Virus record (IMG/VR): IMGVR_UViG_3300031920_000321
Location: 1 to 31,353 of that record
Strand: one strand, 5' to 3'
Source: a virus
Length of the DNA: 31,353 nucleotides
A program made the translations under genes and the position numbers. This document shows positions 1,923 through 31,353 of the stretch, piece by piece; position 1 is the first letter of the stretch, and every line of letters starts with the position of its first letter. The notes under the pieces are model-generated. The model was not told the DNA's origin. It did not search any database and saw only the letters and a list, made by a program, of their open reading frames with translations.

Positions 1923-1932
1923 ATAAATTAGT

Positions 1933-2808
1933 ATGATACTAAAAAAGATTAAAAAAAAGATCTTACAAAAATTATGGATTTGGTGGATAAACGAAGATGA
2001 TGGCTGGAATTTAAGGGGCACAGGAAAACTTGAAGAAATAGAAAAATATCTTTTTCCTAATATGACATTAAAACAAATTAAAACAGGAGACAATTTACTT
2101 TTGACTGGCAATAAAGGTTACATCGGAAAATATCTACAGGAAAGATTACAGCGTGATGGTATTGATAAAGTTGATGGCTACGATGCATGTGATATTAAAG
2201 AAAAAACAAATTTGATTTATCATCTCGCCGCTCAAACATCTGTTCAGAAATCTTTTGAAAATCCAGAACAAGATTTAAGAGACAATGTTCTATCAACTAT
2301 AAATGTATTAAAATATTGTAATAAAATAATTTTTACTTCAAGTGCCGTTGTTTATGGAGATAGACTCAACGCCAAAGAAACAGATCCAACAAATCCACAA
2401 AGTCCTTATGCCATTAGCAAACTAGCTGCAGAACAATATATTATAAATTCAGGAATTGATTATGTTATATTAAGATTAGGAAATGTTTATGGCAGAAAAA
2501 ACAATAAAGGAGTCTTTAAGGCATTAAGAGAAGATGGACTAATAAACGGAAACGGAGAAAATACTAGAGATTATGTTTATATAGATAATGTTGTTGACGC
2601 ATTAATATCGGCAAAAGATTGGGATAATGGAATTTATAATATTGGCACAGGAATTGCGACTTCCGTAAATACAATTGCTAATATATTAGGCGTAAAAAAG
2701 AATTACACTAATGCAGTCAAAGAACAAAAATATATTAGCTTAGATATAACGAAGGCAAGAGAACAAAATTTTAATCCAGCATCTTTACAAAACAATTATG
2801 ATAACTAA
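1933..2808 (+). CDS. NAD-dependent nucleotide-sugar epimerase/dehydratase (extended SDR family)
   Basis: Rossmann motif LLTGNKGYIGKYL and catalytic YxxxK (YAISKLAAE), with an overall SDR layout. The true start may be the internal ATG at 2062 (MTLKQIK...). Confidence 0.8.
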   Translation: MILKKIKKKILQKLWIWWINEDDGWNLRGTGKLEEIEKYLFPNMTLKQIKTGDNLLLTGNKGYIGKYLQERLQRDGIDKVDGYDACDIKEKTNLIYHLAAQTSVQKSFENPEQDLRDNVLSTINVLKYCNKIIFTSSAVVYGDRLNAKETDPTNPQSPYAISKLAAEQYIINSGIDYVILRLGNVYGRKNNKGVFKALREDGLINGNGENTRDYVYIDNVVDALISAKDWDNGIYNIGTGIATSVNTIANILGVKKNYTNAVKEQKYISLDITKAREQNFNPASLQNNYDN

Positions 2809-3391
2809 TTGGCAAAAAGCACAAAAATGGGAAAAGGAATGGCATTTTTCTTCCCAATTTAATCTTTATAACGAAGAAACAAAACAATATATCTATGCTT
2901 CTAAAATGGGGTTGGATAGATATAAGACAAATTATTTTAATCAAATTGGTTGGGACTTTGGTGATAAAAAAGTAATAGACATTGGTGGTGGAGAACAATC
3001 AATCTTGTTAAAGTCAAAAGCAAAAGAAAGAGTTGTTATTGATCCATTGCCTTATGCTAGGTGGATAAATATAAGATATATTGAGGCAGGAATAGAATTT
3101 AAACAAATAAAAGCAGAAGAATTAACTGTTGGGAAATATGACATAGCATTGATTTATAATGTATTGCAACATACTGAAGATCCTGCAAAGATTATAGAGA
3201 ATGTTAAAAAAATAAGTAAAGAAATCCATATCTTTGAATGGGTAGATACAGGAATATCAGAAGGACATATTCATAATTTGACAGAAGTAAAATTAAACGA
3301 CTGGTTAAACGGAGAAGGAAAAGTTGAAAATATTAATCAATATCCGTGTGTAAGCAAGGCTTATTATGGAATATTTAAAGGAAAAATATGA
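2798..3391 (+). CDS. Class I SAM-dependent methyltransferase
   Basis: Motif I VIDIGGGEQS and a later DIALIYNVLQHTEDP segment. It overlaps the previous stop and the next start (ATGA at 3388-3391). Confidence 0.7.
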   Translation: MITNWQKAQKWEKEWHFSSQFNLYNEETKQYIYASKMGLDRYKTNYFNQIGWDFGDKKVIDIGGGEQSILLKSKAKERVVIDPLPYARWINIRYIEAGIEFKQIKAEELTVGKYDIALIYNVLQHTEDPAKIIENVKKISKEIHIFEWVDTGISEGHIHNLTEVKLNDWLNGEGKVENINQYPCVSKAYYGIFKGKI

Positions 3392-5178: not shown

Positions 5179-5192
5179 TCTTAACAATAAAT

Positions 5193-5300: not shown

Positions 5301-5321
5301 TCAATCACTAATAAAAAAATT

Positions 5322-5438
5322 ATGACTAAAGAAGAATACACCGAAGCAACATACGAAAAAGTCATGGAGTTGCTTACAAAAATAGATAAGGAAATGTTGA
5401 CGAAAGATGAGTTCAAAAAAAGGAATCGATATAATTGA
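5322..5438 (+). CDS. Small hypothetical protein, 38 aa
   Basis: Hand translation gives MTKEEYTEATYEKVMELLTKIDKEMLTKDEFKKRNRYN. It fills an otherwise empty gap. It is preceded by the same TTTAATCAATC motif found before the 5193 ORF. Confidence 0.3.
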   Translation: MTKEEYTEATYEKVMELLTKIDKEMLTKDEFKKRNRYN

Positions 5439-5475
5439 TCAACAGATTATTATGAAAAAAATATAAGTTGATAAA

Positions 5476-5507
5476 GCCAGAATCGTCAATATTTGAGCGA
5501 TTCTGGC
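5476..5507. other. Perfect 10-bp inverted repeat with a 12-nt loop
   Basis: GCCAGAATCG (5476-5485) pairs with CGATTCTGGC (5498-5507). It is unusually GC-rich for this region. No adjacent T-run. Confidence 0.6.
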
Positions 5508-5555
5508 GAATTAAACAGTGTCAGAATAGTATTAACTATTTTAATAAACGATAAT

Positions 5556-5714
5556 ATGAAAACACAAGAAAACAAATATGAAATACTAATAAAAGTTGGA
5601 CCATATAATGCAGAAATGGTTGTAATTAAAGCATGGTCAGAGGCTGAAGCACTAAAAAAAGCAGAAAAACGATACCCTGCTTCTTATAAAGTACTTTCTA
5701 CTAAACTTAATTAA
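5556..5714 (+). CDS. Hypothetical protein (52 aa from the ATG at 5556)
   Basis: The tracked ORF 5493..5714 starts at a TTG inside the inverted repeat, so the internal ATG (MKTQENKYEIL...) is preferred. No family recognised. Confidence 0.45.
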   Translation: MKTQENKYEILIKVGPYNAEMVVIKAWSEAEALKKAEKRYPASYKVLSTKLN

Positions 5715-5729
5715 ATTAACAAAAAATAT

Positions 5730-6128
5730 ATGCACATAATAGATATTATTGTCGTAATAACTCTAATAACATTAACAATTACTACGGCAGTACAACTAGA
5801 AGAAAATAAAGAATTAAGAAACTCAATAGCCACTCAACCAGAAATAGTTAAAATTGTGAATGAAGAAATTTCTTTTACAGACTCAATTCAATATAAATCT
5901 ATACAAGATGAATTAAAAACAAAGAATAAAATTATTGAACTTGATAATAAGATATTTGTTCAGCATCAAAAAGAACTTGAATATTATGGTGATTACATTG
6001 TAGCTATTCTCAAAGGAAATGATCGTGATAAAAGATTGCTACGAAAAGAAGTTTTAAAAGCTGGTGAAGAAATACAAGAAATACAAAAAGAATTAGATAA
6101 ATTAACTAATCTTAGAAAGGAATTATAA
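5730..6128 (+). CDS. N-terminally membrane-anchored coiled-coil protein
   Basis: Hydrophobic N-terminus IIDIIVVITLITLTITTAV followed by a charged, heptad-like sequence. Confidence 0.55.
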   Translation: MHIIDIIVVITLITLTITTAVQLEENKELRNSIATQPEIVKIVNEEISFTDSIQYKSIQDELKTKNKIIELDNKIFVQHQKELEYYGDYIVAILKGNDRDKRLLRKEVLKAGEEIQEIQKELDKLTNLRKEL

Positions 6129-6129
6129 T

Positions 6130-6414
6130 ATGTCAAATAAAAACGCATTTGATGAAAATCTACGTAAATTAGAAGAAGAATCTGATAGACGAATGGACTT
6201 ATACTTTGACAAACAATTACTGATAAATGTTAAAAAACAAGATAATTCAATTAAACAAGCGATTAATGATCTTGTTTATGAACTCAACTCATTTGTCACA
6301 GATGCTTTCTATTTAGTTCAAATTATTATACTTGTAGCAATACTTATTATTGTTTGCATTGTCATTCCAGTTATATTGGTATTGTTTATTTTTCCCCAAT
6401 TAACTCATCAATAG
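6130..6414 (+). CDS. C-terminally membrane-anchored (tail-anchored) coiled-coil protein
   Basis: Charged N-terminal half, then FYLVQIIILVAILIIVCIVIPVILVLFIF. The start lies 1 nt after the previous stop. Its 3' end overlaps the convergent 586-aa ORF by 29 nt. Confidence 0.55.
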   Translation: MSNKNAFDENLRKLEEESDRRMDLYFDKQLLINVKKQDNSIKQAINDLVYELNSFVTDAFYLVQIIILVAILIIVCIVIPVILVLFIFPQLTHQ

Positions 6415-8150: not shown

Positions 8151-10718
8151 TTAAGCTAATCGATTATAATTGGCAAATCCTGTCATTTTACTAATTGGTA
8201 TTGCATGAGTAAGAATTTTCTCATCCAATTTGTAATTACTATCTTTAACTGTGGCAATACCATCTTTAATTGAAAGAATTATTCCAACATGACCAGTATC
8301 TTTATACGGCATAGTAAATACCATTCCTGGTTCTGGTGTAGTAATAGATTTATCCATCTTTGCCATTTTTGAAGCATAACTATCTCCTACACCTAAACCT
8401 GTTATGCTGTTAACAAATCTACCACATTGACCTCCTTTTTCACCATCTTCTTTTCCTACTAATGCAATTAAGGCTGAATTTGTGTCGCCTTCAACATTAC
8501 TAAAATCAGATAAAGCAGATATTGCTCTATCAGTAATCATTTTAATAACTCCCATTTCTTTAATGAATGCTTCCTTTGACATATTATATCCAATTACTTT
8601 GCCCTGTTTATTCAATACAGCTGCTCCACCAATGGAAGTTGCTGCATTTTGAAGCATTATTCTTTCTTGATCAGATAATGCACCAAGGGTGCCACCTCTT
8701 GCTTTTAATGCTATGAGGGTATCCATAGTTTCTTTAGATAATACTTGTTGAACTTTCAATATAACATCTTGAGTAGTTCCAAGTATTGCATGAGAAGTAA
8801 ATCCTACTGTCGCAGTTACCCCTGTTCCTGTGATGTTCTTTACTTGATCATCTGCAATTATACTATCGATAACAATATTTTTATCTTGTAAAGCAGCGAT
8901 CATAGAAGCATCTTCAGTACTAACATCTCCACCTGCACCAACTTTAATATCATATGCACCAGTGTTTGTATTCCACATGAAGACATCTTCACCAATCTTT
9001 ACAGTTTTACCTATGTTTGGATCTGCTTCTGCTTCTTCTCCGAAATCAACTGGTAATGCATATATTGAACCATCTGGGAAAGTAATATAATTCTCTACTG
9101 GTAATGTAGCAGCTTCTTCTTCAGTAATTGCCACGAATCCATCAAGTGCAAGATCTCTGTGGAATTTTAACATTTCCATCAAATCATCTTTTTCATTTTC
9201 ATCTAATACTCCTTGAATTTCTAATGCTTTAATTTCTAATTCTGCTGCATCGTATGCATCTTGTGCAGTATCTTTAGCAAGTTGATGTGCTCTATCCCAA
9301 TTACCTTGTGCAATAGATTGACGTATTTCAAGATTTGTCATTTCAGTAATTCTTTGACCTTCAAGTTTAGATTGTTCTGCATCAATAACATGACCAGATG
9401 CTAATCTATTAGCTATTCTAGTTTTTTCACCAGAATAGAATTCTTTTCTGTCTTGGATAGTTGTTTCTATCTCTGTAATTTTATCTGATTTGCCTTCAAG
9501 ATCTAATTCTTCTGCAGCAGTATCAAATGCTTCTTTTTTAATACCTACCATTTCTTTTATCTTATCAATGATTGATTGAAAAGCAGATTTTTGTTCCGGA
9601 GTTCCATCAGGAATAATTGTATCAGCATCAGTTGTTTCTGCTGTCGGAGTATATGTTCCCTTTGCAGTTTCATCTGCCATTTCAGCTCTACCTGTTCTTT
9701 CAAACCAATCATTTAACCAAGTGTTAGCTTCTGTTCCTGCTTTATATGGATCTTGTCCAGGGAATAATTTTTCAACTTCAGTTTGTACATCAGTTCTAGT
9801 TCCATAATAATCTACTAGAGTACCTCCTTCTGGTGCAGTAGTTTCAACTGGCACTGTAGGTGTGAATGTCCCCTTAGCTGCTTCATCTGCCATTTCAGCT
9901 TGACCAGTAGTAGACCACCAATTTTTTAACCATTCATTAGCTTCAGTTCCTTGTTGCAATGGATCTTGTCCTGGGAATTCAGCAGATGCTGCTGCAACTA
10001 CATCAGGTCGAGTATTATAATAATCAACTAAATCATCACCTGTAATTACTGCAATATCTTCTTCAAGTGGAATTTGTTCAGCCATTTCCGTTGCACCTGT
10101 CCGATTCCACCAATCATTTAACCAACGATTTGCAGCAGTTCCTTGTTTGAAAGGATCTTGACCAGGAAATGCTTTTGTAATAACAGACTGAACATCGGGT
10201 CTTTTATTATATGCATCAATTACTGCATTACCTGTGATTGCTGGTGCTTCTCGAGTAGTTTCTGTTGCCCAACTAAAATCAGACCAATCTTTATCAGACC
10301 ATTGTGATTGAGGTTTAGTTTTAATTAATGTTTCAATATTCTTTTGCTGAGTTGCATCAAGATCAGTTCTAAATGCAGGTATTTCAGCAATACCATCTAC
10401 ACCGAAACGTTGACCTAGTCCTGTTAATTCAGGAACTGTAATATCAGGTGACAATGGTTCTGGTTTGACATCACTAATCAAAGATCTTTTTGGAATTACT
10501 GTAATTGGTAAATTGTCACCATCACCTAAATCAAGACTAGTCTTATCAGAAACAGACGACGGTTTTTGTACTGTTGCTGGAGCAGAAGCCTTCCAGCCAG
10601 ATGCAAGATATTCATTATATTGTTCTGCTGGAACTTCCTTTTGACTTCCTCTACTACTCCAAACCAATCTTTTTTTTGGATTCCAAGAAGGAGTTATTCC
10701 TCCTATTGTTGTAGCCAT
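8151..10718 (-). CDS. Virion-associated peptidoglycan hydrolase; 855-aa protein with a C-terminal CHAP domain and three internal ~55-60-aa repeats
   Basis: The last ~100 aa carry GGQCGRFVN ... DTGHVGIIL ... KDSNY, a CHAP-like Cys-His-polar arrangement (nt ~8154-8458). The repeats carry the consensus YY.TR.DV....FPGQDP...GT.AN.WL.DWW..TG.AEMA (residues ~165-358). The centre is coiled-coil. Confidence 0.75.
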   Translation of the reverse strand: MATTIGGITPSWNPKKRLVWSSRGSQKEVPAEQYNEYLASGWKASAPATVQKPSSVSDKTSLDLGDGDNLPITVIPKRSLISDVKPEPLSPDITVPELTGLGQRFGVDGIAEIPAFRTDLDATQQKNIETLIKTKPQSQWSDKDWSDFSWATETTREAPAITGNAVIDAYNKRPDVQSVITKAFPGQDPFKQGTAANRWLNDWWNRTGATEMAEQIPLEEDIAVITGDDLVDYYNTRPDVVAAASAEFPGQDPLQQGTEANEWLKNWWSTTGQAEMADEAAKGTFTPTVPVETTAPEGGTLVDYYGTRTDVQTEVEKLFPGQDPYKAGTEANTWLNDWFERTGRAEMADETAKGTYTPTAETTDADTIIPDGTPEQKSAFQSIIDKIKEMVGIKKEAFDTAAEELDLEGKSDKITEIETTIQDRKEFYSGEKTRIANRLASGHVIDAEQSKLEGQRITEMTNLEIRQSIAQGNWDRAHQLAKDTAQDAYDAAELEIKALEIQGVLDENEKDDLMEMLKFHRDLALDGFVAITEEEAATLPVENYITFPDGSIYALPVDFGEEAEADPNIGKTVKIGEDVFMWNTNTGAYDIKVGAGGDVSTEDASMIAALQDKNIVIDSIIADDQVKNITGTGVTATVGFTSHAILGTTQDVILKVQQVLSKETMDTLIALKARGGTLGALSDQERIMLQNAATSIGGAAVLNKQGKVIGYNMSKEAFIKEMGVIKMITDRAISALSDFSNVEGDTNSALIALVGKEDGEKGGQCGRFVNSITGLGVGDSYASKMAKMDKSITTPEPGMVFTMPYKDTGHVGIILSIKDGIATVKDSNYKLDEKILTHAIPISKMTGFANYNRLA

Positions 10719-16853: not shown

Positions 16854-18104
<1,251 letters not shown>

Positions 18105-18127
18105 ATTTGTAAGTTATTTATTATTTG

Positions 18128-18198
18128 CAGTAAGGAAAGGGATCGAACCTTTGTCTTTCGTTTTGGAGACGAATATTCTACCATTAAAATACCAAACT
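18128..18198 (-). tRNA. tRNA-Trp (anticodon CCA)-like gene with an imperfect acceptor stem
   Basis: The hand-folded cloverleaf has these parts. T arm AAAGG-UUCGAUC-CCUUU. Anticodon arm UUCGU-CUCCAAA-ACGAA. D loop AAUGGUA with a 3-bp stem. U8 and G73. Acceptor AGUUUGG/CCUUACU pairs at 5 of 7 positions, with U-U mismatches at 4:69 and 5:68. No encoded CCA. Confidence 0.55.
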
Positions 18199-18202
18199 GT
18201 GT

Positions 18203-18901
18203 TTAATCATCAAACAATTCTCTAGTAGGATATTGTTTACCAACTTCTGCAGGATTTTTAAATCTTAGAGGATAGTTTAATTCTCTACTTGCCAATTCTT
18301 TTGCCATGATTTCTATTCTACCATAAAATTGTTTTTCCATTCTATCTGCTCTGTCCCATACTTCATATCTTTCACATGCTTTACCTGCAGCATATACTGC
18401 CATGTCATCATGATAATCTTCAGGAATAACTGATATATCACCAGAATTTACTAATGCAGAAGGTCTGGCAATATAATATATTTGACCACCTTTCGTAGAT
18501 AATACAGTAGGTTTAGGTCTAATTCTCATATAGTTATTAGTAATATCAACTATTGGATTTGATGTACTTACACCTTCTTCTTCACTAGTATGCTGTATCT
18601 CAGTTGGATTATAACCGGAAGCAATAGAATAATCACTATCTGTAGTAGGTGTTGTATATGCTAATCTTAATTGTTTGAACTTGAGTAAATCAGTCGGTAA
18701 TTGATACAAGCCAGAGTTTGCTGCTAAATTAAAAGTTGTTTTCTGTTCTTCAAAGTAGTCTTCATTAACTCTAATTATTCTCATAACCATTTTTAATTGA
18801 GCATCATTAAGATGCCGATCAATTTCAGCATTTGTTAATCTGGTTGTATCAGATATATTTGATTTGAATCTCACTTGAGATCTTAATGTGGCTAAATTCA
18901 T
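18203..18901 (-). CDS. Putative head-tail adaptor/connector-like structural protein, 232 aa
   Basis: Its position follows the capsid genes and the sugar cassette. The N-terminal pattern LATLRSQVRF...LTNAEIDRHLNDAQ resembles head-tail connector families. This assignment is tentative. Confidence 0.45.
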   Translation of the reverse strand: MNLATLRSQVRFKSNISDTTRLTNAEIDRHLNDAQLKMVMRIIRVNEDYFEEQKTTFNLAANSGLYQLPTDLLKFKQLRLAYTTPTTDSDYSIASGYNPTEIQHTSEEEGVSTSNPIVDITNNYMRIRPKPTVLSTKGGQIYYIARPSALVNSGDISVIPEDYHDDMAVYAAGKACERYEVWDRADRMEKQFYGRIEIMAKELASRELNYPLRFKNPAEVGKQYPTRELFDD

Positions 18902-18910
18902 AATTGTATG

Positions 18911-19975
18911 TTATAGGTTTAATATAAAATCTGACCATCGACTAACATGTGCCGACATATCATACTTTTTAATTGAATCATTATATGCATTTTCGCCAAT
19001 TCTCTTTCGTTCCTTTTCATTTTCTATTAAATAGCTAAGACCACATACCCAATCATCATCTGTTTCTGCTAATATGCCAGTATGTCTATTCAATACATTA
19101 GTATAATGATGAGCAGAATATACTGCGGGAATCTTGTTAATGCTATATTCTAAATATTTGCATTGGCTTTTACATTTATTAAAAAAGTTCTTCTGCAATG
19201 GTGCTATTGCAATATCTGCTTGAAGTGCTGCTAATTTATATGGCCATATATTGCCAGGCACTGCTAAAATGTTTTCACGATTATTAGGTATTCCTTCCCA
19301 TAAATCATCACCATATATAAATTTTGCTTGTAAATCGTCTGTTTTAACACCACCGTCACCGACATAAATAAATTTAACATGTGGATATTTTTCTAAAATC
19401 CTTTTCATTATTGGTTTGAATTTCAGTAGATCACCTTTATGACTTGTACTTCCTGCCCAAAGTAAGCGTATCATATCTGAATGATTTGGTTTATATTCTT
19501 TTAGCCAATGAGTAATATCAAGATAATTGTCAAAAACTAATGATTTTTTTGCAAGCCAACCATACTGTTTCTTTAAAGTTTCATTAGTTGTAATAAAACC
19601 ATCACAGTGTCGTAAACAATTTATTATTTCTTTCCATACTTTCGTTTTGTTTTTGAAACCTTTTATACTATCATAACTATAATGAGTCTTTGGTACTGTA
19701 TGTATTAAATCATCACATTCAAATACTACTTTTTTTCCTAATTTTTTACATAACTTAACAATTGCTGCAGAAAATACCATTTCTAATATTACAATATCTG
19801 ACCATTGGATATGTTGTTCCATTTGCTGGTCATTGCTATCTGATAATATAACTTCATGACCAAGCGATTGCATATACTTCAATTGTGGTATCATTCGATA
19901 ATACCTTGAACCTGAGCCATTATGTATTGCATAGATCTTTAACTTTGTAGTAGTTATCATTGTAGATGTGTTCAT
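18911..19975 (-). CDS. Probable GT-B fold glycosyltransferase, 354 aa
   Basis: The C-terminal half carries LLWAGSTSHKGDL...FIYVGDGG and IAIAPLQKNFFNKCKSQCKYLEYSINKIPAVYS, which resemble GT-B donor-binding-domain patterns. It overlaps the upstream gene by 4 nt. Confidence 0.55.
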   Translation of the reverse strand: MNTSTMITTTKLKIYAIHNGSGSRYYRMIPQLKYMQSLGHEVILSDSNDQQMEQHIQWSDIVILEMVFSAAIVKLCKKLGKKVVFECDDLIHTVPKTHYSYDSIKGFKNKTKVWKEIINCLRHCDGFITTNETLKKQYGWLAKKSLVFDNYLDITHWLKEYKPNHSDMIRLLWAGSTSHKGDLLKFKPIMKRILEKYPHVKFIYVGDGGVKTDDLQAKFIYGDDLWEGIPNNRENILAVPGNIWPYKLAALQADIAIAPLQKNFFNKCKSQCKYLEYSINKIPAVYSAHHYTNVLNRHTGILAETDDDWVCGLSYLIENEKERKRIGENAYNDSIKKYDMSAHVSRWSDFILNL

Positions 19976-20703
19976 TTTGTATGTCTTAAAATTGAATCGA
20001 GTAAATAATCATGCCCGTATTGTTTTTCAAGTAATTTTGCATTGGGTATTTGACAATGTCCACCAATCACATCGTTCTCTGGTAAATACAATATTGGTCG
20101 AATTACTTCAGGTTTGCCTAATTTCATATAACCAACATTATAACTATTATTCCATTCTGTCATTACTGCTTCAAAGCTTAAATTTTCTTTTTCACACAAT
20201 TTATTAGCATACGAATGAAAAGCAATGCACGTTGCATAATAAGTAGTTGATAATAGTTTTGCTAGTTCAGTCGTTTTTGATTTATGTACAATTTGCGGTA
20301 TCATTCCTATTTCTTCAAAATGCTCTGCTACTAATCTACCTGCACCAGCAAAATCTGCACCAATGTATTTTACAAATGTTTTAATGCCATCATATAAATT
20401 AGGATGGACACCTCTAACGGGAGAATGCACAGCAAATTTATACTCAAGTTTTTCAGTTGTACCCACTGGTACTGATGAATGAATTATTACCAAAGGTTTA
20501 TAATTATCAATATGCACTTTGACAATGTCTATAAAGTTATCACTATACGGAATACACACATGCAATATATCTAATTTATCAGGAAAATCGGAAGTATCAA
20601 TCTCTTCGACATATACTTGGCAATTGTTTTTTCCAACGTAGAATTTGCCGATTGCTTTGCCAACTTCACCATTTCCTAACAATCCAATATTTTTCTTAAT
20701 CAT
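19972..20703 (-). CDS. NAD(P)-binding nucleotide-sugar dehydrogenase-like protein (short UDP-glucose/GDP-mannose dehydrogenase family-like)
   Basis: N-terminal GxGxxG (IGLLGNGEVGKAIG), LHVCIPY, and a GGHCQIPNAKLL segment resembling the catalytic GGxC(F/L)PKD motif. At 243 aa it is shorter than canonical family members. Confidence 0.5.
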   Translation of the reverse strand: MIKKNIGLLGNGEVGKAIGKFYVGKNNCQVYVEEIDTSDFPDKLDILHVCIPYSDNFIDIVKVHIDNYKPLVIIHSSVPVGTTEKLEYKFAVHSPVRGVHPNLYDGIKTFVKYIGADFAGAGRLVAEHFEEIGMIPQIVHKSKTTELAKLLSTTYYATCIAFHSYANKLCEKENLSFEAVMTEWNNSYNVGYMKLGKPEVIRPILYLPENDVIGGHCQIPNAKLLEKQYGHDYLLDSILRHTK

Positions 20704-20719
20704 ATTTAAATGTTATGAC

Positions 20720-21025
20720 TTAGTTTCTTGATAACGTACCTATGATTGCTTGCATTGTTGCAAGTAATTCTAAGTTACCAGCAGTTTCATTTTTAACAAC
20801 AGTAACTGTATTTCCATCTGTTTCAATTATAATTTGTCTTTTTGGTTGAGCATTAATTGGACCAGGTGCAGGAATTTCTACTTGTTTTTCAAGTATTGTT
20901 TTCTTTGGAGATTCTTTAACGTCTTCTCTTATTTTTTTAGCATTTGATTTTTTACCCATAATATTTTTATTAATATTAGTTAAATTATTTTTAGAATTCA
21001 TCAGTTTCTTCAATACAATTGACAT
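20720..21025 (-). CDS. Hypothetical small basic protein, 101 aa
   Basis: ORF within the sugar cassette with a Lys/Asn-rich N-terminus. The start codon is uncertain (several in-frame Met). Confidence 0.45.
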   Translation of the reverse strand: MSIVLKKLMNSKNNLTNINKNIMGKKSNAKKIREDVKESPKKTILEKQVEIPAPGPINAQPKRQIIIETDGNTVTVVKNETAGNLELLATMQAIIGTLSRN

Positions 21026-21150
21026 TATAACTTGATGAAGTTGGTCTGTTTACATTATCTACGTTACCACTGAAATTAAATGTTCTTTTTTCCTTTTCTA
21101 ATTTTTGAACAACTTTAATCAATTCCTCTAAAGTGTCCATTGTTATATTT

Positions 21151-21828
21151 TTATTTACTTTCATGATTTATATTCCTTTCTAGTTTATTTATCTCAACAT
21201 AGTCTTCACTTATAAATCCAAATGAAGCATCTGCTGGAACATTAGTAATTATATTTTGATAACATGCATCTAAATTATTTTTAACATTTGGTGAATATCC
21301 ACAATGTCCATGACCAACTATTATATCAGTATCAGGTAACATCTCTTCGAACGACCAATTGTTTTGAAATGTTTTTGTTCCTTCTGGTACATTACGTGGG
21401 TGATTACTATTAATCGCTACAATATATCCTTTATCTCGTAATGCTACAAATGCATCATATGAATATTGCCAATAAGGAGCACAACATATCTTCTTATAAT
21501 TTAATCCAATTCGTTCAAACATATTTTCAGATGCTGTCAACATTGTCATAATAGTATCGTACGGTTTGGTCATTTCGAAATGAGTATGAGCAAAGCCATG
21601 CAAACCAATTTCTAACCATTCATAACTATTTATAACTTCTGCCCATTTTTTATATTTTTCTACTTTAAAATGTTTTTGATTGCCAGGTTGAAAGAATTCT
21701 TTTGGAAAAGGTATTGTAAAAGCAGTCATTTTAAAGTCAGGTATAAGACGTTGCATTCTTATTATTTCATCCATGCCTGGCATTAGAAATCCAAAATCAT
21801 GTACATCCATGTAAAATTTATTTGGCAT
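21151..21828 (-). CDS. Polysaccharide deacetylase-like (DUF2334/NodB-type) metal hydrolase
   Basis: DVHDFG near the N-terminus, GLHGFAHTH mid-protein and VGHGHCGY later give an Asp/His pattern like carbohydrate-esterase-type deacetylases. Tentative. Confidence 0.4.
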   Translation of the reverse strand: MPNKFYMDVHDFGFLMPGMDEIIRMQRLIPDFKMTAFTIPFPKEFFQPGNQKHFKVEKYKKWAEVINSYEWLEIGLHGFAHTHFEMTKPYDTIMTMLTASENMFERIGLNYKKICCAPYWQYSYDAFVALRDKGYIVAINSNHPRNVPEGTKTFQNNWSFEEMLPDTDIIVGHGHCGYSPNVKNNLDACYQNIITNVPADASFGFISEDYVEINKLERNINHESK

Positions 21829-22549
21829 ATTGTTCTTTCGTTAGTTGCTTAAACGAGTAGTCATAATACTTCTCTGATGCTATTTTACTTTTATGCCAAT
21901 TATGATATAAAATTAAGTCAGGCACAGATTTACAAAGCAAACCATGATAATACATTTTGCCAATTAAGATATTGTCATCACCACCATATCCTTTTATCTT
22001 AGAATCCCATCCACCGTATTTCCGTAATGCTTCAGTTGGTATAGCTAAGCCATTTCCTGTTAATACTTCAAACGGACTATTCATAATAATTGCTTCATGT
22101 TGAGGAATTACATTTTTGACTAATCGCCAATCAACATCTACTGCATTTTTTCCATCTATTTGTAATCTAACTCCACATACTATAGTATCTTTATCAATTT
22201 TTTCATTCAATATTTCAAGATAGTTTAATTCAGGGAAAGAATCACCCATTATAAATAAACAATATTCCCCTTTTGCTTTCTTAATTCCTCTATTCATCAT
22301 ACCACTTAAATATTTTTTGAAAAAAGGTCTATCATATGTATGAGGAAAATTAAACTCAGGTTCTGCTAAGAAAAACTCTTTAGTACCATCAGTAGATCTA
22401 TCATCGCAGAAAATTACTTCAAAGTTTTTATATGTTTGATTTGACAAACTTTCAATTAACTTAAACAAGTATTTACGTTGATTATAACAACCAATAATTA
22501 TGCTATATTTTGGATTTGTCATATTTTTTTCCCCTTTCCATATATCCAT
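21818..22549 (-). CDS. Family 2 (GT-A) glycosyltransferase
   Basis: YSIIIGCYNQRKYLFKLIESLSNQTYKNFEVIFCDDRSTDGT and a later GGDD motif. Confidence 0.85.
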   Translation of the reverse strand: MDIWKGEKNMTNPKYSIIIGCYNQRKYLFKLIESLSNQTYKNFEVIFCDDRSTDGTKEFFLAEPEFNFPHTYDRPFFKKYLSGMMNRGIKKAKGEYCLFIMGDSFPELNYLEILNEKIDKDTIVCGVRLQIDGKNAVDVDWRLVKNVIPQHEAIIMNSPFEVLTGNGLAIPTEALRKYGGWDSKIKGYGGDDNILIGKMYYHGLLCKSVPDLILYHNWHKSKIASEKYYDYSFKQLTKEQYAK

Positions 22550-23055
22550 TTATTTTCTTGATTAAGATATTCCTCGATATTAAAGTATCTACCAACTACT
22601 TCCTTTATATCTGCTAAATCTCTAAAATCATATTTATGAAATGTAGAAATTGCTAAACTATTTAATGGTATCGAAAAGGCAAGTGTATCACCTTTCAATT
22701 GAGATAAAAAGAAATCAGGATTTTCTAAATGTTCAATAGTTTCCAATGAAACACATACTTCGTGATCTGGTAAAAGGTCTTTATCTAAGTCTGCTTTAAT
22801 GAATTGCACATTATCTTTAATATATGGATATAATTTAGCGTGTTCTAGTGCTTCATCGTTATTATCAATTGCTATTACTCTTTTTGCTACTAAACTATAT
22901 AAATATGTTCCAAGACCAGCACCGCAACTCGCATCTAATACAATTTTATCTTTGCAATAATGCATAGCAAATATATATCTTTGCAGATTTATTGATATTT
23001 CGTATGGTCCACTAATATGTGGAACAAAAAATTCGCCGCTTTTATTTGTTAGCAT
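22519..23055 (-). CDS. Class I SAM-dependent methyltransferase
   Basis: Motif I VLDASCGAGLGTYL, acidic residue after beta-2 (IAIDNNDEAL), and SLETIEHLENP. Confidence 0.75.
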   Translation of the reverse strand: MLTNKSGEFFVPHISGPYEISINLQRYIFAMHYCKDKIVLDASCGAGLGTYLYSLVAKRVIAIDNNDEALEHAKLYPYIKDNVQFIKADLDKDLLPDHEVCVSLETIEHLENPDFFLSQLKGDTLAFSIPLNSLAISTFHKYDFRDLADIKEVVGRYFNIEEYLNQENKWIYGKGKKI

Positions 23056-24475
23056 GTTGTAGTTTTAATGTTCTTTTAAAATATTCAGGGTATTTACGGA
23101 TTTGACCTGAAGAACCATCTATATGAATTACTGTGAACTCTTCCATATAGAATAGATTGAAACCTTTTTGCTGAACAGATTTTGATAAGAAGTAATCTTT
23201 ATTACCAGGCAAGCCTTCTGGAAATACAAATCCATCGTACATTGAAAGATATGAACCAAATACTATTCCTCCTAAGTTTGGAACAATTCCTAAAATGTTA
23301 TCATTTATCGTTACATATGGACTATTGCCATCCATTCGTTGTCTTAATACTCCACCAGGTGTCCCTTCTAATCCTTCTACAGTTGGACTTAGAACTAAAC
23401 CTTTATTTCTTTCTAGTAATCCAACCATTGCTGACAACCAGTTATCTGTTATTTCCATTGCATCATTATCATGCTTAACAATTATATCATATTTGCCTGC
23501 TTTTCTAATAACATCAACACCTTTCATCCAACCATTTGCTACTCCAATATTATCTTTTAAGAAAACTGGAAATACATGCTTATCTTTTTTCTGCAATTCT
23601 TTTAAGTATCCTGTAGTTCCATCTGTAGAACCTTGATCTATTGGAAACCAATCAAATTCATATCCTGCAGTTTGTCTCATTGTTTCATAAGATTTTTTAG
23701 TATATTCATATCTATCTAAAACTAATGTAAAAATACCAACTTTTAATGGTTTGTAATCCGCTAAACAAGATTTATCTGCAAAAATTCTACAATCAGCAGG
23801 ATTAAATGTCGGAATATAATTACCATATTCGTCATACTCTAATTTATTCTTGCTACTAATTGTATTTGAATGTTGTAAAACTTCTGTTATTAAAATAGGA
23901 ACATGTATAAATTGGCATCCATTTTTATGCAATCTCATCCATAAATTCCAATCTTTAAATTGTTCCAGTTCTTCATTAAACCCACCTACTTCGATTAACT
24001 TTTCTCTTTTAACAAAAGAGACTGACATTGAAATATAATTACGTTGAGATAATAGTTGAGGGTCAAAATCAATAGACCAACCAGCTTCTCTCTTTTTCTT
24101 TCCTTCTATATTATTCAGGTAATCACCATATGCTACATCAGCAGTAGTGTGTTTTAAGTATGTATAAATTATTGCTAATGCTTCTTTTTTTCTATAAATA
24201 TCATCATCATCTAAAAATGCTATATATTCACCATTTGCATTTAGTATACCAATATTTTTTGGCTTACCGTCATGACCTGTGTTTTCTGATGTTTTAATAT
24301 AGCGTACTCTCTTATCTTTAAAATTTCTGACAATCTTTTCAGTATCATCAGTTGAGCAATCATCAATTATCAATAATTCAAAATCTTCAAAAGTCTGGTC
24401 AAGAACAGATTTAATTGCTTTTTTAAGAAAGTCACTTCTATTATATGTAGAAATTATTACACTTATTATTGGCAT
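23042..24475 (-). CDS. Two-domain glycosyltransferase (N-terminal GT2, C-terminal second GT-A-like domain)
   Basis: N-terminal ISVIISTYNRSDFLKKAIKSVLDQTFEDFELLIIDDCSTDDT plus FLDDDD. The second half carries VGIFTLVLDRYEYT...PIDQGSTDGT...KHDND. Confidence 0.8.
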   Translation of the reverse strand: MPIISVIISTYNRSDFLKKAIKSVLDQTFEDFELLIIDDCSTDDTEKIVRNFKDKRVRYIKTSENTGHDGKPKNIGILNANGEYIAFLDDDDIYRKKEALAIIYTYLKHTTADVAYGDYLNNIEGKKKREAGWSIDFDPQLLSQRNYISMSVSFVKREKLIEVGGFNEELEQFKDWNLWMRLHKNGCQFIHVPILITEVLQHSNTISSKNKLEYDEYGNYIPTFNPADCRIFADKSCLADYKPLKVGIFTLVLDRYEYTKKSYETMRQTAGYEFDWFPIDQGSTDGTTGYLKELQKKDKHVFPVFLKDNIGVANGWMKGVDVIRKAGKYDIIVKHDNDAMEITDNWLSAMVGLLERNKGLVLSPTVEGLEGTPGGVLRQRMDGNSPYVTINDNILGIVPNLGGIVFGSYLSMYDGFVFPEGLPGNKDYFLSKSVQQKGFNLFYMEEFTVIHIDGSSGQIRKYPEYFKRTLKLQHANK

Positions 24476-24562: not shown

Positions 24563-24584
24563 TGGGGGTTTGAAGGTACCCCCA
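24563..24584 (-). promoter_or_regulatory. GC-rich hairpin downstream of the major capsid gene (attenuator or RNA-stability element candidate)
   Basis: TGGGGGT (24563-24569) pairs with ACCCCCA (24578-24584) around an 8-nt loop. It is the only G5/C5 stem noticed in this AT-rich genome. No U-run follows on either strand. A second small hairpin, ACAGAA-TGAC-TTCTGT, lies at 24512-24527. Confidence 0.4.
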
Positions 24585-24630: not shown

Positions 24631-25545
24631 TTAGCCTAAAGTTGCAGATGATTCAAGACGAACACCTTTTTGATTACTAAGAACTTCAGAAGAAAGAACA
24701 AATCTGTATCCATAGGTATTGTATTGTCTCAATTCAGAACCTCTTCCCGGTTCATTGATAACAATTTCAAGTTCACCCATTTCAGATTGTCCCAAGAAAT
24801 CTTGACCAAAAATCAAAGAACGATAAACATCTGTCGAAGCAGAACCTGAATTTGTCAAAACAGGAATTGTAGGTGCTATAGCGAAACGAACACCCCAAAT
24901 TTTACCAACTTCACCAGGAATATCATACTTTACAGTATCCCTGTACTTCACAACATCTGTCCAAGCAGAATCAGTTTGAAGATCAAATGCTACGTCTGGA
25001 TGAACCAAACCAACATAAAATCCATCAGCAAATCTAGGTACAGATGAAAGTTGAAGTAATCTAACAGCTTTACGAACATCAGCAATTGTAGCAGAGCATG
25101 CTTCTATGATTCCACTTCTGTGAAGTTTACCTTTAGCATAGAGAGCAGTTCCACCAACAAGAGCCTTAGCAAGAACAGCATCATCTAAAGTTTTTGCAGC
25201 ATCCATTGCCAAATCCTTTATAATTGCTTCTTTTGTTCCGTCAATAGCAGTATCCATGAAGAGTCTAGAATTCTTAATAAGATTTCCATACTCTGTCAAT
25301 GTACCAGAAACACGAGTAGCATTAGAAGAACGAGCAGTAGGATCAGCACCTTCTGAAAGAGAGGCACCAGCAGTACTAACTTTAGGAATACCTACCCACC
25401 AAACAACTTTACCATTTCCTTTACCTACTTTAGCTTTACGAGTCAAGCCTTTGAGAGCAAGAGTATCATAAAGATTTTCGATGAAGAAATCATGCCAATA
25501 TTGTTTGAGGGCTTTTGCACCAGTTGTAGTAGTTCCAACAGCCAT
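24631..25545 (-). CDS. Major capsid protein (HK97-fold type expected)
   Basis: A 304-aa ORF directly downstream of the scaffold-like gene in the order TerL-portal-scaffold-capsid. Its composition is typical of small HK97-like capsid proteins. Family not verified. Confidence 0.75.
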   Translation of the reverse strand: MAVGTTTTGAKALKQYWHDFFIENLYDTLALKGLTRKAKVGKGNGKVVWWVGIPKVSTAGASLSEGADPTARSSNATRVSGTLTEYGNLIKNSRLFMDTAIDGTKEAIIKDLAMDAAKTLDDAVLAKALVGGTALYAKGKLHRSGIIEACSATIADVRKAVRLLQLSSVPRFADGFYVGLVHPDVAFDLQTDSAWTDVVKYRDTVKYDIPGEVGKIWGVRFAIAPTIPVLTNSGSASTDVYRSLIFGQDFLGQSEMGELEIVINEPGRGSELRQYNTYGYRFVLSSEVLSNQKGVRLESSATLG

Positions 25546-28522: not shown

Positions 28523-29836
28523 TTAAAGGTCTAAAAATTCGGAGCTCTCTTCATCGTAATTAAATCGTACTGAATCCATTTTATCATCATCTTGGAATAA
28601 CTCACCAGCGAATTCAGAACTTTTCTTTTTAACAAATGGCACTTTACTTCCTAAATCCCAGACTGAAAGTGCTGCGGACATTATACAATCATCATGTATT
28701 CCTTCAGGTACCTGTATCTTTATTTTACCATTCTTACCTAATACATATTGCATACTTCTCATTTCATCTAATAGAATAGGATTATTCGGTAAAAGTATTT
28801 CTCTATTCTGTATTTTAATTGCAAGATTCTGTAGTAATGGTTCTCTGGAAGCAGAAGTAAATGTAAATGGTTGAACATTAATATGTTCTCTTTTCTTTAA
28901 ATCATCGTATATTGGTTCTCCTAATCCTGTATTATCTACTAATAGTAAATGCTGTTTATATAATTTAGTATAAGCTTCAATCTTTTGCTTTTGATATGAC
29001 CATTCTAATTGATTGAATCTTAATGGATGTCCTATTTTCCAATTATGTCTATCACAAGGTGTTAATACTGTCCAATCATTATGTTTACCAAGATCACATC
29101 CAATTTGATAAAACCTTTCATCATTAGGTGTTAAATTTCCATCCCATAAAACATTATCTATACCTGCAAAGAATTGACCAGCACCTTCAAGGAATTCACA
29201 GTAATATTCTTGCATGAAGAATGCTTGAGGAGTAGTTCTTCTAGCTTCTTCTAATTCTTCTGTGCTAATAATTCCAGTGTCTTCTACAGTCTTAATTGAT
29301 GTCCACCAATTAGGATTACCTTTTGCTTGTTGTAAGAGCTTCCATGAGTGATTTCTTCCCTTTGGTGTATATATAAATGTTGCGGACCCTTTATTAGCTC
29401 GGAGAACTGGTTGAATAACTGATGTCCAAATTTGTTCATTCATTTCAGAGTATTCATCAAACACTACATCTATTGGACCAGCTCCTCTATGACTATCAAT
29501 ATTTTCAGCACCTAAGAATCTTTGTATACTTCCATTTTTCCAATAAATAGCTAATTCACTATCATTTAATTTATGGACTAATTGCATTGGAACATGTTTC
29601 TTTACCAGAACATCCCACATAACTCTTTTTGCCTGAGTATAAGTCGGTAAAAAATAATAATAAACATTAGGTGTTGTCACTGCTTTCCTTATCTGTTCGT
29701 TCAGAGCTACTGTCGACTTCCCCGCCCTTCTGTGAAACACTGCTATCTTGTATCTTGCTTTGCTCTGTAGAAACTCCAGTTGGTGAGGTCTCGGTTGGAA
29801 CTTGTATGGTATCGTTATTTGCATATTGGATAACAT
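28523..29836 (-). CDS. terL: Terminase large subunit
   Basis: Walker A FHRRAGKST, Walker B-like IDVVFDEYSEM, and C-terminal nuclease-type acidic motifs (LLLVDNTGLGEP, GIHDDCIMSAA). Confidence 0.9.
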   Translation of the reverse strand: MLSNMQITIPYKFQPRPHQLEFLQSKARYKIAVFHRRAGKSTVALNEQIRKAVTTPNVYYYFLPTYTQAKRVMWDVLVKKHVPMQLVHKLNDSELAIYWKNGSIQRFLGAENIDSHRGAGPIDVVFDEYSEMNEQIWTSVIQPVLRANKGSATFIYTPKGRNHSWKLLQQAKGNPNWWTSIKTVEDTGIISTEELEEARRTTPQAFFMQEYYCEFLEGAGQFFAGIDNVLWDGNLTPNDERFYQIGCDLGKHNDWTVLTPCDRHNWKIGHPLRFNQLEWSYQKQKIEAYTKLYKQHLLLVDNTGLGEPIYDDLKKREHINVQPFTFTSASREPLLQNLAIKIQNREILLPNNPILLDEMRSMQYVLGKNGKIKIQVPEGIHDDCIMSAALSVWDLGSKVPFVKKKSSEFAGELFQDDDKMDSVRFNYDEESSEFLDL

Positions 29837-30239
29837 TAATTTTTAATGGATCTCCATTTGGATCAGCATGTCTTTCATCCTTAGCATCACGGTAATCGTG
29901 TTTTGTCAACATTAGCTTTGTAATAGCAGAATTGAAATCTCCTCTTAATCCGTTAGAAATAAGAACTTTTGCTTGCTTTACTTTAATTTTTTCAAAGATG
30001 TGTAAAAACTCAACATTTTTTTCATCATTAGCCCAATTATAAAGAGTCTTTCTGGATACATCTAAATAATATGCGAGTCCTTCAATGCTAGGAATTATAT
30101 CGTCCTTATCTAAGTTTTGCCAATTCTCTAAATAATACCTGGATGACAAAACTACCTCTGGAGTTAGTCCATAAGGTCTGCCTTCTGGATTTTTATCGGG
30201 AGTTTCTTTTGAATTTTTATCTGGTGTTTTTTTTTCCAT
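29667..30239 (-). CDS. terS: Terminase small subunit (HTH DNA-binding N-terminal domain)
   Basis: The GRPYGLTPE...IPSIEGLAYYLDVSRKTLYNWA...NGLRGDFNSAITKLMLTKHDYRD pattern is typical of gp3-like small terminases. It lies directly upstream of terL. Its low-complexity C-terminal 56 aa overlap terL out of frame. Confidence 0.7.
   Translation of the reverse strand: MEKKTPDKNSKETPDKNPEGRPYGLTPEVVLSSRYYLENWQNLDKDDIIPSIEGLAYYLDVSRKTLYNWANDEKNVEFLHIFEKIKVKQAKVLISNGLRGDFNSAITKLMLTKHDYRDAKDERHADPNGDPLKINVIQYANNDTIQVPTETSPTGVSTEQSKIQDSSVSQKGGEVDSSSERTDKESSDNT
30185..30232. repeat. 48-nt exact repeat shared with 8-55 and 31306-31353 (5' coding ends of the two terS paralogues)
   Basis: Base-by-base comparison: identical from CTGGATTTTTATC through CTGGTGTTTTTT. 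Confidence 0.9.
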
Positions 30240-31003: not shown

Positions 31004-31353
31004 TCAATTTGCATCTCTATAATCGTGTTTAGTCAACATCAATTTAGTAATAGTGCTATTATATTCTCCTTTTATTCCATTATTGATGAGTTCCCTTCCT
31101 TGCATAGACATTAATTTTTCATAGATGTCTATGTATTCTTGAGAACTTTTTTCCTTAGCCCATTTATGTAAAGTGCTTCTACCAACTTCTGCAAATACTG
31201 ATAGTCCTTCAATGGTTGGAAAAACATCTCCTAATTCTTTGTATTGCATCAAATAAGCCTTTGCTGTAGCTAAAAACTCTGGTGTTAGTCCACTTGGCCT
31301 ACCCACTGGATTTTTATCGGGAGTTTCTTTTGAATTTTTATCTGGTGTTTTTT
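31004..31353 (-). CDS. Truncated TerS-like HTH paralogue (3' part; the start codon lies across the junction at 65..63)
   Basis: GRPSGLTPEF...FPTIEGLSVFAEVGRSTLHKWA...NGIKGEYNSTITKLMLTKHDYRDAN then a stop. It is colinear with residues 1-120 of TerS but ends right after the shared KHDYRDA motif. Confidence 0.65.
   Translation of the reverse strand, partial: KTPDKNSKETPDKNPVGRPSGLTPEFLATAKAYLMQYKELGDVFPTIEGLSVFAEVGRSTLHKWAKEKSSQEYIDIYEKLMSMQGRELINNGIKGEYNSTITKLMLTKHDYRDAN
31299..31353. repeat. Terminal overlap identical to 1-55
   Basis: See 1-55. Confidence 0.9.

Follow-up and report, generated by a model that had tools for sequence, protein, structure and literature searches.

The window analysed here is the complete IMG/VR virus record IMGVR_UViG_3300031920_000321, a stretch of DNA of 31,353 nucleotides (nt). 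On its minus strand, from position 24475 to 18911, a cassette of seven open reading frames (ORFs) lies between the major capsid gene and an SU10-type head-tail adaptor gene, and most of its products belong to sugar-modifying enzyme families (Table 1). A first-pass annotation, made from the letters of the window, had described these genes as a glycan-building cassette within the late virion operon. When the ORF coordinates and translations were re-examined, the number, order, strand and positions of the seven ORFs were the same, as was their placement between capsid and head-tail genes. The four junctions that had been described as overlapping by 4-31 nt measure 14, 31, 11 and 4 nt from the ORF coordinates. 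An eighth ORF of 57 amino acids (aa; 21164-20991) overlaps two neighbours and is unsupported.

Table 1. Positions of the cassette genes, their flanking genes and the second sugar module in the window. GT, glycosyltransferase; SAM, S-adenosylmethionine; CE4, carbohydrate esterase family 4; AF2, AlphaFold2; SDR, short-chain dehydrogenase/reductase; pI, isoelectric point.
Feature	Position	Strand	Basis
Major capsid protein, 304 aa, candidate glycan acceptor	24631..25545	-	phrog_1357 major head protein, E=1.3e-37
G+C-rich hairpin (UGGGGGU/ACCCCCA), no U-tract	24563..24584	-	in 155-nt spacer after capsid gene
Two-domain GT2 (GT-A fold) glycosyltransferase, 477 aa	23042..24475	-	PF00535 Glycos_transf_2, E=2.3e-43, two stretches
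Class I SAM-dependent methyltransferase, 178 aa	22519..23055	-	Methyltransf_11, 30.2 bits vs cut-off 21.2
Single-domain GT2 glycosyltransferase, 243 aa	21818..22549	-	PF00535, E=5.2e-22
NodB/CE4-fold deacetylase-like protein, 225 aa	21151..21828	-	homologue domains, invariant residues, AF2 model
Small lysine-rich ORF, 101 aa as listed, pI 10.0	20720..21025	-	position conserved in relatives
Truncated nucleotide-sugar 6-dehydrogenase-like protein, 243 aa	19972..20703	-	family profile and AF2 model
GT-B type glycosyltransferase, 354 aa	18911..19975	-	phrog_7162 glycosyltransferase, E=3.3e-28
SU10-type head-tail adaptor, end of cassette	18203..18901	-	PF24175 SU10_adaptor, E=5.9e-19
Collagen-like fibre, 416 aa, candidate acceptor of methyltransferase + GT1 module	16854..18104	-	repeat content
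Extended-SDR nucleotide-sugar epimerase/dehydratase, 291 aa	1933..2808	+	PF01370, E=1.1e-34; phrog_540, E=6.9e-47
Methyltransferase, 197 aa, paired with GT1	2798..3391	+	phrog_3603
GT1/GT4-type glycosyltransferase, 399 aa	3388..4587	+	PF00534, E=2.3e-12; phrog_3408, E=1e-76

Both GT2 proteins exceeded the PF00535 gathering cut-off of 23.3 bits, with 148.4 bits for the 477-aa protein and 79 bits for the 243-aa protein, and the C-terminal half of the larger one matched Glycos_transf_2 by itself (E=1.1e-9, 38.9 bits). The DXD-type motifs LDDDD, HDND and GGDD were seen in the GT2 translations. Among PDB sequences the two-domain GT2 matched chondroitin synthase, TarS, TarP and SpsA, and its first domain carries the PHROG label 'GtrB-like O-antigen conversion'; an exhaustive search with this protein returned 400,004 generic GT2 matches and no functional clue. 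For the 354-aa GT-B protein the Pfam matches were sub-threshold (19.2 and 17.6 bits). Its homologues carry GT1-type domains (PF00534, PF13524 or PF13692), and the family profile gave weak GT4 matches in the PDB, restricted to the C-terminal part (E=5e-4). In NCBIfam no cassette protein had a match above any curated cut-off, and therefore no specific enzyme name can be assigned. No hydrophobic or membrane segment and no signal peptide was found in any cassette protein.

The 225-aa protein alone scored 16.6 bits with DUF2334, under the cut-off of 26, and did not reach the gathering score of Polysacc_deac_1. Many of its 76 homologues carry DUF2334 (PF10096) and/or Polysacc_deac_1 (PF01522), and the family shares the consensus MDVDDFGF and the invariant residues H77, H81, P118, W120, H173 and H175, which form His-x3-His, Pro-x-Trp and Gly-His-Gly-His motifs. 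Single-sequence searches of the PDB with the GT-B and the NodB-like protein gave no matches, and the NodB-like family profile was uninformative against PDB sequences, so that structure prediction was needed for the latter. The best Foldseek matches of its AF2 model (predicted local distance difference test, pLDDT, 90.8) were the CE4 enzymes 7fbw, Bc1960, ArnD and PgdA (E=3e-6, TM 0.55-0.63). Model and family alignment thus agree on a NodB fold with an Asp-His-His metal-site motif.

The family profile of the 243-aa dehydrogenase-like protein matched nucleotide-sugar 6-dehydrogenases of the WecC/UGDH type (E=2.5e-9 for 4r16), and its AF2 model (pLDDT 94.8) resembled Cap5O, Cj1441 and UGDH in Foldseek (TMq 0.70-0.79). 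The protein keeps the Rossmann domain, the central helices, the invariant residues G7, G10, G12, H216 and C217 and an invariant GGHC catalytic motif. It ends at residue 243 and lacks the C-terminal uridine diphosphate (UDP)-binding domain (PF03720). Because this whole domain is missing, we call it dehydrogenase-like and not a canonical member of the family. In total 1345 homologues (clusters) were found, and all 120 for which lengths were listed are of about 235-280 aa. With these results the enzyme assignments of the first-pass annotation were borne out, for the GT2 proteins and the methyltransferase by Pfam, for the 354-aa protein, a probable GT-B enzyme, by PHROG, and for the deacetylase-like and dehydrogenase-like proteins by family profiles or homologues together with AF2 and Foldseek.

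This 'half' nucleotide-sugar dehydrogenase family of more than 1300 clusters is uncharacterised and is concentrated in Patescibacteria (Candidate Phyla Radiation, CPR), with a few members in DPANN genomes. Its genes are found inside surface-glycan clusters, sometimes beside a full-length UGDH (loci L031, L032 and L112-L191). Genes of Patescibacteria (Magasanikbacteria, Wildermuthbacteria, Staskawiczbacteria and others) share 50-54% identity with the one in the window. In Magasanikbacteria and Wildermuthbacteria, GT2, Glyco_trans_1_2, methyltransferase and Polysacc_deac_1 genes are found in the surrounding clusters as well, and the Magasanikbacteria locus has a G+C content of 27%. At the level of sequence identity, this points to Patescibacteria as host of the phage or as donor of the gene.

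In most related phages, the NodB-like gene is followed by a small lysine-rich ORF; the real length of the one in the window is probably about 60-80 aa. Its counterpart in the related contig L001 (13823-14008) has 61 aa, the corresponding position and 49% identity. A tripeptide N-E-T is kept in the conserved C-terminal segment of this sequence type, and a second, unrelated type occupies the position in five relatives (L003, L006, L008, L011 and L012).

The gene content of the cassette allows a product other than a glycoprotein, such as a free or secreted oligo- or polysaccharide, a small glycosylated product or reprogrammed host nucleotide-sugar pools (compare the chlorovirus hyaluronan and chitin). 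GT2, NodB-type deacetylase and SAM methyltransferase are the NodC/NodB/NodS combination, enzymes that make free modified chito-oligosaccharides, and the positionally conserved small basic ORF inside the cassette could also fit such a product. We consider this explanation unlikely. The GT2 proteins do not have the membrane-embedded architecture of processive synthases, an export function was not found, and neither the fixed position of the cassette between capsid and adaptor nor the fibre linkage described below would be explained.

To follow the cassette in related phages, a check that the first-pass annotation had proposed, 16 IMG/VR contigs were retrieved with the capsid protein (62-84% identity). 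In 13 of the 13 relatives with sequence past the capsid gene, the two-domain GT2 is the next gene. Nine contigs have the full order capsid, two-domain GT2, (methyltransferase), GT2, NodB-like, (dehydrogenase-like), GT-B, adaptor, and two further members from JGI and ENA assemblies share this order and have a different terminase type. The single-domain GT2 has orthologues in all relatives, and the GT-B gene is always directly upstream of the adaptor gene in the clade. Cassette orthologues are 42-79% identical among members, compared to 35-70% for the portal and 38-77% for the adaptor. Their presence in many independent contigs supports the ORFs as genuine genes. These similar ranges fit vertical co-inheritance of the cassette with the morphogenesis module and do not fit a patchy moron.

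Other parts of the cassette vary. The dehydrogenase-like gene is accessory and present in three of nine relatives, and L001, L006 and L008 have inserted GT-D-fold transferases, one of them as a GT2+GT-D fusion (L001), as well as an extra methyltransferase, a radical-SAM/SPASM protein and a nitroreductase-like protein. Such a constant core, accompanied by tailoring genes that vary, is what diversifying selection on a surface glycan would be expected to produce. The fibre genes downstream of the adaptor are not conserved among the relatives. At 90% identity clustering, the NodB-like family comprises 76 clusters and the GT-B family 153, and the longest contigs carrying them never exceed 41 kb; both families therefore look phage-restricted.

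Among cultured phages, capsid identity reaches only about 30%, and the Bacillus Pagevirus and Streptomyces phage relatives have no cassette after the capsid gene; in Bacillus Pagevirus, small head-tail genes follow directly. The GT-B gene was also found in two extra lineages, in which the capsid protein is only about 25% identical to that of the window or undetectable. The first is MW202801 (Manatee Spring), a complete 40-kb podovirus genome with a GT-B homologue of 26% identity. Its gene order (MW202801.1, locus L018, 19272-24303) is capsid, hypothetical protein, Fe-S oxidoreductase, GT, PhyH dioxygenase, methyltransferase, NodB-like, GT-B and structural genes. The second lineage, represented by L047, L056 and L087, has the order terminase, portal, scaffold, capsid, a 120-135-aa protein, GT-B, adaptor, small ORF, collagen-like fibre, methyltransferase and GT1. 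Here the GT-B proteins are 23-28% and the adaptors 27-30% identical to those of the window. As GT-B directly precedes the adaptor in the clade of the window and in both further podophage lineages, this arrangement is old and recurrent in SU10-like podophages. The PhyH-type dioxygenase of MW202801.1 and the Fe-S/radical-SAM (SPASM) enzymes of MW202801.1 and L006 (9635-10657) suggest further tailoring chemistry in analogous podophage cassettes.

The gene preceding the cassette encodes a candidate acceptor. In the capsid protein of the window, residues 4-8 form a conserved Thr tract (GTTTT) near the N-terminus, and the C-terminus is rich in Ser. In the capsid alignment of the clade, an N-terminal Thr/Ser tract (GTTTT, GTTST or similar) and an ESSASLG-like C-terminal tail are shared. 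The capsid termini of the more distant GT-B-bearing lineage do not share the Thr tract, and hence the idea of an acceptor tract rests on the window's own clade. The hairpin in the spacer behind the capsid gene is probably an attenuator or an RNA-stability element. Comparable post-capsid hairpins occur in all relatives, with a U-tract added in L003 and L004. A scan of the coding strand of the cassette for sigma-70 promoters and terminators gave nothing above shuffled controls. The hairpin, together with the lack of an internal promoter or terminator, fits strong capsid expression and attenuated read-through into genes whose products are needed in catalytic amounts.

A second sugar module is encoded on the plus strand at 1933-4587. 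The first-pass annotation had assigned about a quarter of the genome to sugar chemistry, and the two modules indeed account for (5565+2655)/31298 = 26%. Likewise, the three repeat- or lectin-type fibre genes reported downstream were found after the adaptor, encoding a collagen-like, a LamG/DUF2341 and a pentapeptide-repeat protein. The collagen-like fibre contains 46 G-X-Y triplets; 24 of them are of the G-X-T type, and 20 are GDT. A search with the GT1 protein found ten contigs from other lineages. Nine of the ten have a GDT-type collagen-like gene 1-3 kb upstream on the same strand, with a methyltransferase gene between. In the reverse search with the GDT repeat, 78 loci were found, and the methyltransferase + GT1 pair was present downstream in 15 of the 30 loci with at least 5.5 kb of downstream sequence. 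The GDT fibre proteins share essentially the repeat, as their N- and C-terminal domains differ. The first-pass annotation had labelled the module at 1933-4587 'early', but in other phages its methyltransferase + GT1 pair lies in the late operon.

Among cultured phages, GT1 homologues were found only in the Synechococcus myophages S-CAM7 and ACG-2014f (37-39% identity). In S-CAM7 (L192, NC_031927, 12914-20410), the homologue (38% identity) comes immediately after two genes for collagen-like proteins, whose repeats are GST/GAT, and is located beside a 2-oxoglutarate (2OG)-Fe(II) oxygenase gene within the baseplate/tail-fibre block. The large collagen-like proteins of S-CAM7 are gp014, with 20 G-X-Y runs, and gp015. 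The set of collagen-like proteins, GT1 and 2OG-Fe(II) oxygenase is reminiscent of collagen hydroxylation plus glycosylation.

We regard the cassette as phage-encoded machinery that glycosylates virion proteins; this is our best reading, unproven, and in our judgement it has about an even chance of being correct. The cassette would be transcribed with the late morphogenesis genes by read-through past the post-capsid hairpin. In the simplest model, soluble cytoplasmic enzymes would then draw on host nucleotide sugars and, either ahead of virion assembly or while it takes place, attach a short glycan stepwise to patches rich in Ser and Thr on a conserved virion protein. The likeliest acceptor would be the major capsid protein, with its GTTTT tract and Ser-rich C-terminus. 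In this scheme the GT-B protein and the three GT2 domains would add sugars, the NodB-like enzyme would remove an N-acetyl group from an N-acetylhexosamine (HexNAc) and the methyltransferase would methylate a hydroxyl group or the freed amine. Where the truncated dehydrogenase is present, its role may be to oxidise a sugar. The second, mobile module (epimerase, methyltransferase and GT1) would O-glycosylate Thr residues of the G-D-T collagen-like fibre, as in BclA-type proteins. The acceptor proteins, the order of the reactions and the identity of the sugars are our inference from gene content, and the benefit may lie in shielding, stability or adsorption.

A virion-linked role is strengthened by what was directly observed, namely the invariant synteny, the two phage-restricted families, the adjacency of GT-B and adaptor in three lineages and the linkage of methyltransferase + GT1 to collagen-like genes. 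The self-glycosylation proposed in the first-pass annotation thus gained from the comparative data. Its emphasis on the neighbouring fibres did not hold up: these genes are not conserved in the relatives, so that the late cassette is unlikely to be aimed at them and the capsid or another conserved virion protein is the likelier target. Several observations weigh against virion glycosylation. Everything rests on gene context, with no glycoprotein observed, and the capsid acceptor tracts are a compositional observation only. In its gene content the cassette resembles bacterial clusters for envelope polysaccharides: TuaG, EpsD, chondroitin synthase and TarS/TarP are the best named matches for the first GT2 domain, and genes 50-54% identical to the dehydrogenase-like gene lie inside the Patescibacteria surface-glycan clusters. 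In a tblastn search of 50,697 phage records with the two-domain GT2 and the GT-B protein, no mycobacteriophage was among the matches and organism groups listed. The counts for methyltransferase + GT1 and collagen-like genes include related, non-independent loci, and the window has the pair on the opposite strand from the collagen-like gene, at a distance of about 12 kb. Finally, the post-capsid site could simply be a permissive insertion site.

Remodelling of the host envelope is a serious rival, although we judge it rather improbable. Here the enzymes would act on lipid- or wall-linked host glycans (a cell-wall polysaccharide, a teichoic-acid-like polymer or an S-layer glycan) by way of host priming, flipping and ligation, and would block superinfection or stop progeny from sticking to debris. 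Such a role agrees with the resemblance of the GT2 domains to polysaccharide and teichoic-acid transferases, including the prophage-encoded wall teichoic acid (WTA) enzyme TarP, with the 'GtrB-like' PHROG labels and with the location of the dehydrogenase-like homologues inside large surface-glycan clusters of Magasanikbacteria and Wildermuthbacteria. It is also the prevailing reading of tail-fibre-region transferases in aquatic phages (PMC7029224). However, Pfam and PHROG scans of all ORFs of the genome found no flippase, polymerase, priming phosphoglycosyltransferase or GtrA, a GtrC partner was not found either, and the enzymes lack membrane segments. Moreover, the phage is apparently lytic (no integrase) and the cassette lies in the late operon, so that a new surface glycan would come too late to matter much. 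The restriction of two enzyme families to phage-size contigs, and the invariable presence of a cassette that diverges in step with the structural genes, are unlike a patchy auxiliary gene. The linkages of GT-B to the adaptor and of methyltransferase + GT1 to collagen-like fibres would also be left unexplained. We therefore rate host remodelling below virion glycosylation, because the enzymes are soluble, late and universally conserved with the structural module and because two of the families are phage-restricted.

The genome as a whole bears on a third alternative. The first and last 55 nt of the window (1-55 and 31299-31353) are identical direct terminal repeats, and the window is therefore a complete, terminally redundant genome of about 31.3 kb, with a G+C content of roughly 30%. 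On the minus strand, a long unit extends from about 30825 to 6386. It starts with holin, small and large terminase, SU10/P22-type portal, scaffold-like protein and major capsid protein, and continues with the cassette, the SU10-type adaptor, tRNA-Trp, the collagen-like fibre and the LamG/DUF2341 protein. It ends with a 1001-aa pentapeptide-repeat protein, an 855-aa protein with a terminal CHAP domain and a 586-aa protein. A second, short unit on the plus strand (1776-6414), convergent with the first, encodes an Arc-like 48-aa ORF, the SDR epimerase/dehydratase, the methyltransferase, GT1 and an endonuclease, and also has three small ORFs, of which two are hydrophobic. Pfam and PHROG scans of all ORFs of this complete genome recognised no replication, nucleotide-metabolism or integration gene; no DNA polymerase, primase, helicase, recombinase or integrase was among the products.

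The third alternative is glycosylation of modified phage bases for restriction evasion. In phages, multi-transferase DNA glycosylation has been reported (Pyle 2024, as cited in PMC12619734). In line with the first-pass annotation, which had noted the lack of base-hydroxymethylation and integration genes, the scans found no dCMP/dUMP hydroxymethylase and no thymidylate-synthase homologue. The transferase genes are late and within the structural operon, and neither the deacetylase nor the fibre linkage would have a role. DNA hypermodification is thus highly improbable, and as their partner genes are missing, both DNA glycosylation and Gtr-type seroconversion were rejected.

Several other features of the genome were observed. 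The only nucleic-acid enzyme found is the 157-aa endonuclease (4681-5154, phrog_2340), and DNA methyltransferases are present in larger relatives of 38-39 kb. The tRNA-Trp gene (anticodon CCA, 18127-18198, minus strand) lies between the adaptor and collagen-like fibre genes inside the late operon. There are two small-terminase-like ORFs on the minus strand (29667-30239 and 31004-31306; GP3_package and phrog_606), whose 5' regions share a 77-nt stretch with 90% identity (30156-30232 and 31277-31353) that overlaps the terminal repeat. The 855-aa protein (8151-10718, minus strand) with its C-terminal CHAP peptidase domain is probably a tail-associated lysin, and a separate endolysin gene was not recognised in the genome. 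Its gene contains three direct repeats of about 125 nt each with a spacing of about 200 nt (9641-10170).

Between the divergent minus- and plus-strand units, a 1.4-kb stretch (490-1930) has no ORF of at least 50 aa in any frame. Stop-codon recoding was rejected as its cause, since recoding of any one stop still gives no ORF. Inside it, an island at about 900-1350 has an elevated G+C content of 35-48% versus 17-25% in the flanks, and the minus strand of 880-1420 folds much better than shuffled sequences (z=-4.07; 0 of 100 shuffles equal). The stretch has no Rfam match and is a candidate novel structured RNA or origin/regulatory region.

An identical contig is present in run SRR1971621, a methane-seep metagenome according to the paper that binned "ANME sp. 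HMMV" from it. An INPHARED nucleotide search with the cassette region gave no match. We take the HMMV of this bin name to be the Haakon Mosby mud volcano.

Combining these results, a broader picture is possible, one that we hold only tentatively and with more doubt than confidence. In it, uncultured podophages of 30-40 kb that probably infect Patescibacteria/CPR form a large clade whose morphogenesis module would include, as a vertically inherited core part, a glycan pathway of five to nine enzymes; this pathway would decorate the capsid with a glycan that is methylated and partly de-N-acetylated. Independently of it, a mobile methyltransferase + GT1 pair would O-glycosylate Thr in the G-X-T collagen-like fibres of phages that range as far as T4-like cyanophages. 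In the literature searched, we found no published description of this clade, of the cassette or of the linkage between GT1 and collagen-like fibres. To our knowledge, phage-encoded virion glycosylation has been demonstrated only in actinobacteriophages, where it alters antibody recognition.

If virion glycosylation is correct for the cassette, it extends to an unrelated and abundant environmental phage clade and gains new tailoring chemistry in the form of a deacetylase and a truncated sugar dehydrogenase. Under the broader picture above, glycosylated virions would be widespread outside the actinobacteriophages, and many transferases annotated as 'lipopolysaccharide (LPS)-modifying auxiliary' in structural and tail-fibre regions of aquatic phages would be virion-modification enzymes. 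The linkage of methyltransferase + GT1 to collagen-like genes in the cultured phage S-CAM7 offers a testable case of virion versus host envelope, which bears on the annotation of viromes. In addition, the Patescibacteria identity of the dehydrogenase-like gene provides a host lead for a phage group without assigned hosts.

Known glycosylation systems share parts of this arrangement. GtrABC and the prophage enzyme TarP resemble it in having a phage-encoded GT2, as reflected in the PHROG label of the first GT2 domain and the PDB similarity to TarP. In contrast, GtrABC consists of a membrane-bound GtrB, a GtrA flippase and a serotype-specific Gtr in temperate phages, and none of these features was found here. 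In the Fap1/GspB adhesins, soluble GT-B, GT-A and GT-D enzymes glycosylate a Ser/Thr-rich protein stepwise in the cytoplasm, and the GT-D archetype dGT1 acts on serine-rich Fap1 in the same compartment (PMC5063993). The GT-D and GT2+GT-D fusion genes in the cassettes of relatives recall these enzymes (GtfA/B, Gtf3 and dGT1). However, Fap1/GspB are bacterial adhesins with accessory Sec export, and the window itself has no GT-D.

For the second module, the parallel lies in collagen-like proteins. SgtA of C. difficile, encoded next to bclA3, adds O-linked N-acetylglucosamine (O-GlcNAc) to Thr of the GPT repeats of BclA3 (PMC7157674), an arrangement whose logic is exactly that proposed for the phage pair. 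In Mimivirus, a viral enzyme glycosylates the collagen-like proteins (PMC4691112). The methyltransferase + GT1 pair, which tracks G-X-T collagen-like genes, is similar to SgtA/BclA3, B. anthracis BclA and Mimivirus L230 in this respect. The phage enzyme is of the GT-B/GT1 Glycos_transf_1 type, unlike SgtA (GT-A plus tetratricopeptide repeats, TPR) and L230 (hydroxylysine), with which it has no detectable homology.

The glycosylation of Vp54 by chlorovirus PBCV-1, whose A064R includes a methyltransferase domain, is similar in its logic, as virus-encoded, cytoplasmic and host-independent multi-domain transferases and an O-methyltransferase place methylated glycans on the major capsid protein (PMC4691112). 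PBCV-1 differs in being a giant virus of eukaryotes; its capsid fold is unrelated, the sequences show no relationship, and its glycans are N-linked and atypical. Chloroviruses and mimiviruses also have larger virus-encoded glycosylation sets than the one described here (PMC4691112), and the Cluster O mycobacteriophages of the Corndog type have an O-methyltransferase and three transferases inside the structural operon (PMC4351075, PMC11600133). The statement of the first-pass annotation that the cassette is far more elaborate than known systems was therefore overstated, and its 'one- or two-GT systems' understated the precedent of the Corndog type.

The closest parallel is found in the actinobacteriophage operons (Cluster O, Corndog gp35-38; Cluster F, Che8), in which a methyltransferase and several glycosyltransferases are likewise encoded within the virion structural operon. 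These enzymes are not virion components and their products modify capsid and tail-tube subunits (PMC4351075, PMC11600133, PMC12619734); modification of the capsid and tail tube by the Corndog-type enzymes is reported by Freeman 2023, as cited in PMC11600133 and PMC12619734. Differences exist in the transferases, which have no detectable orthology to those of the mycobacteriophages, in the location, between capsid and adaptor here and between portal and protease in Corndog, and in the phage, an SU10-like podovirus with another putative host. Glycosylation has been reported in the actinobacteriophages and is proposed here. The window has three further enzyme classes, namely a NodB/CE4 deacetylase, the truncated sugar dehydrogenase and an SDR epimerase. 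By function, the actinobacteriophage virion-glycosylation operon is thus the closest known system to this cassette.

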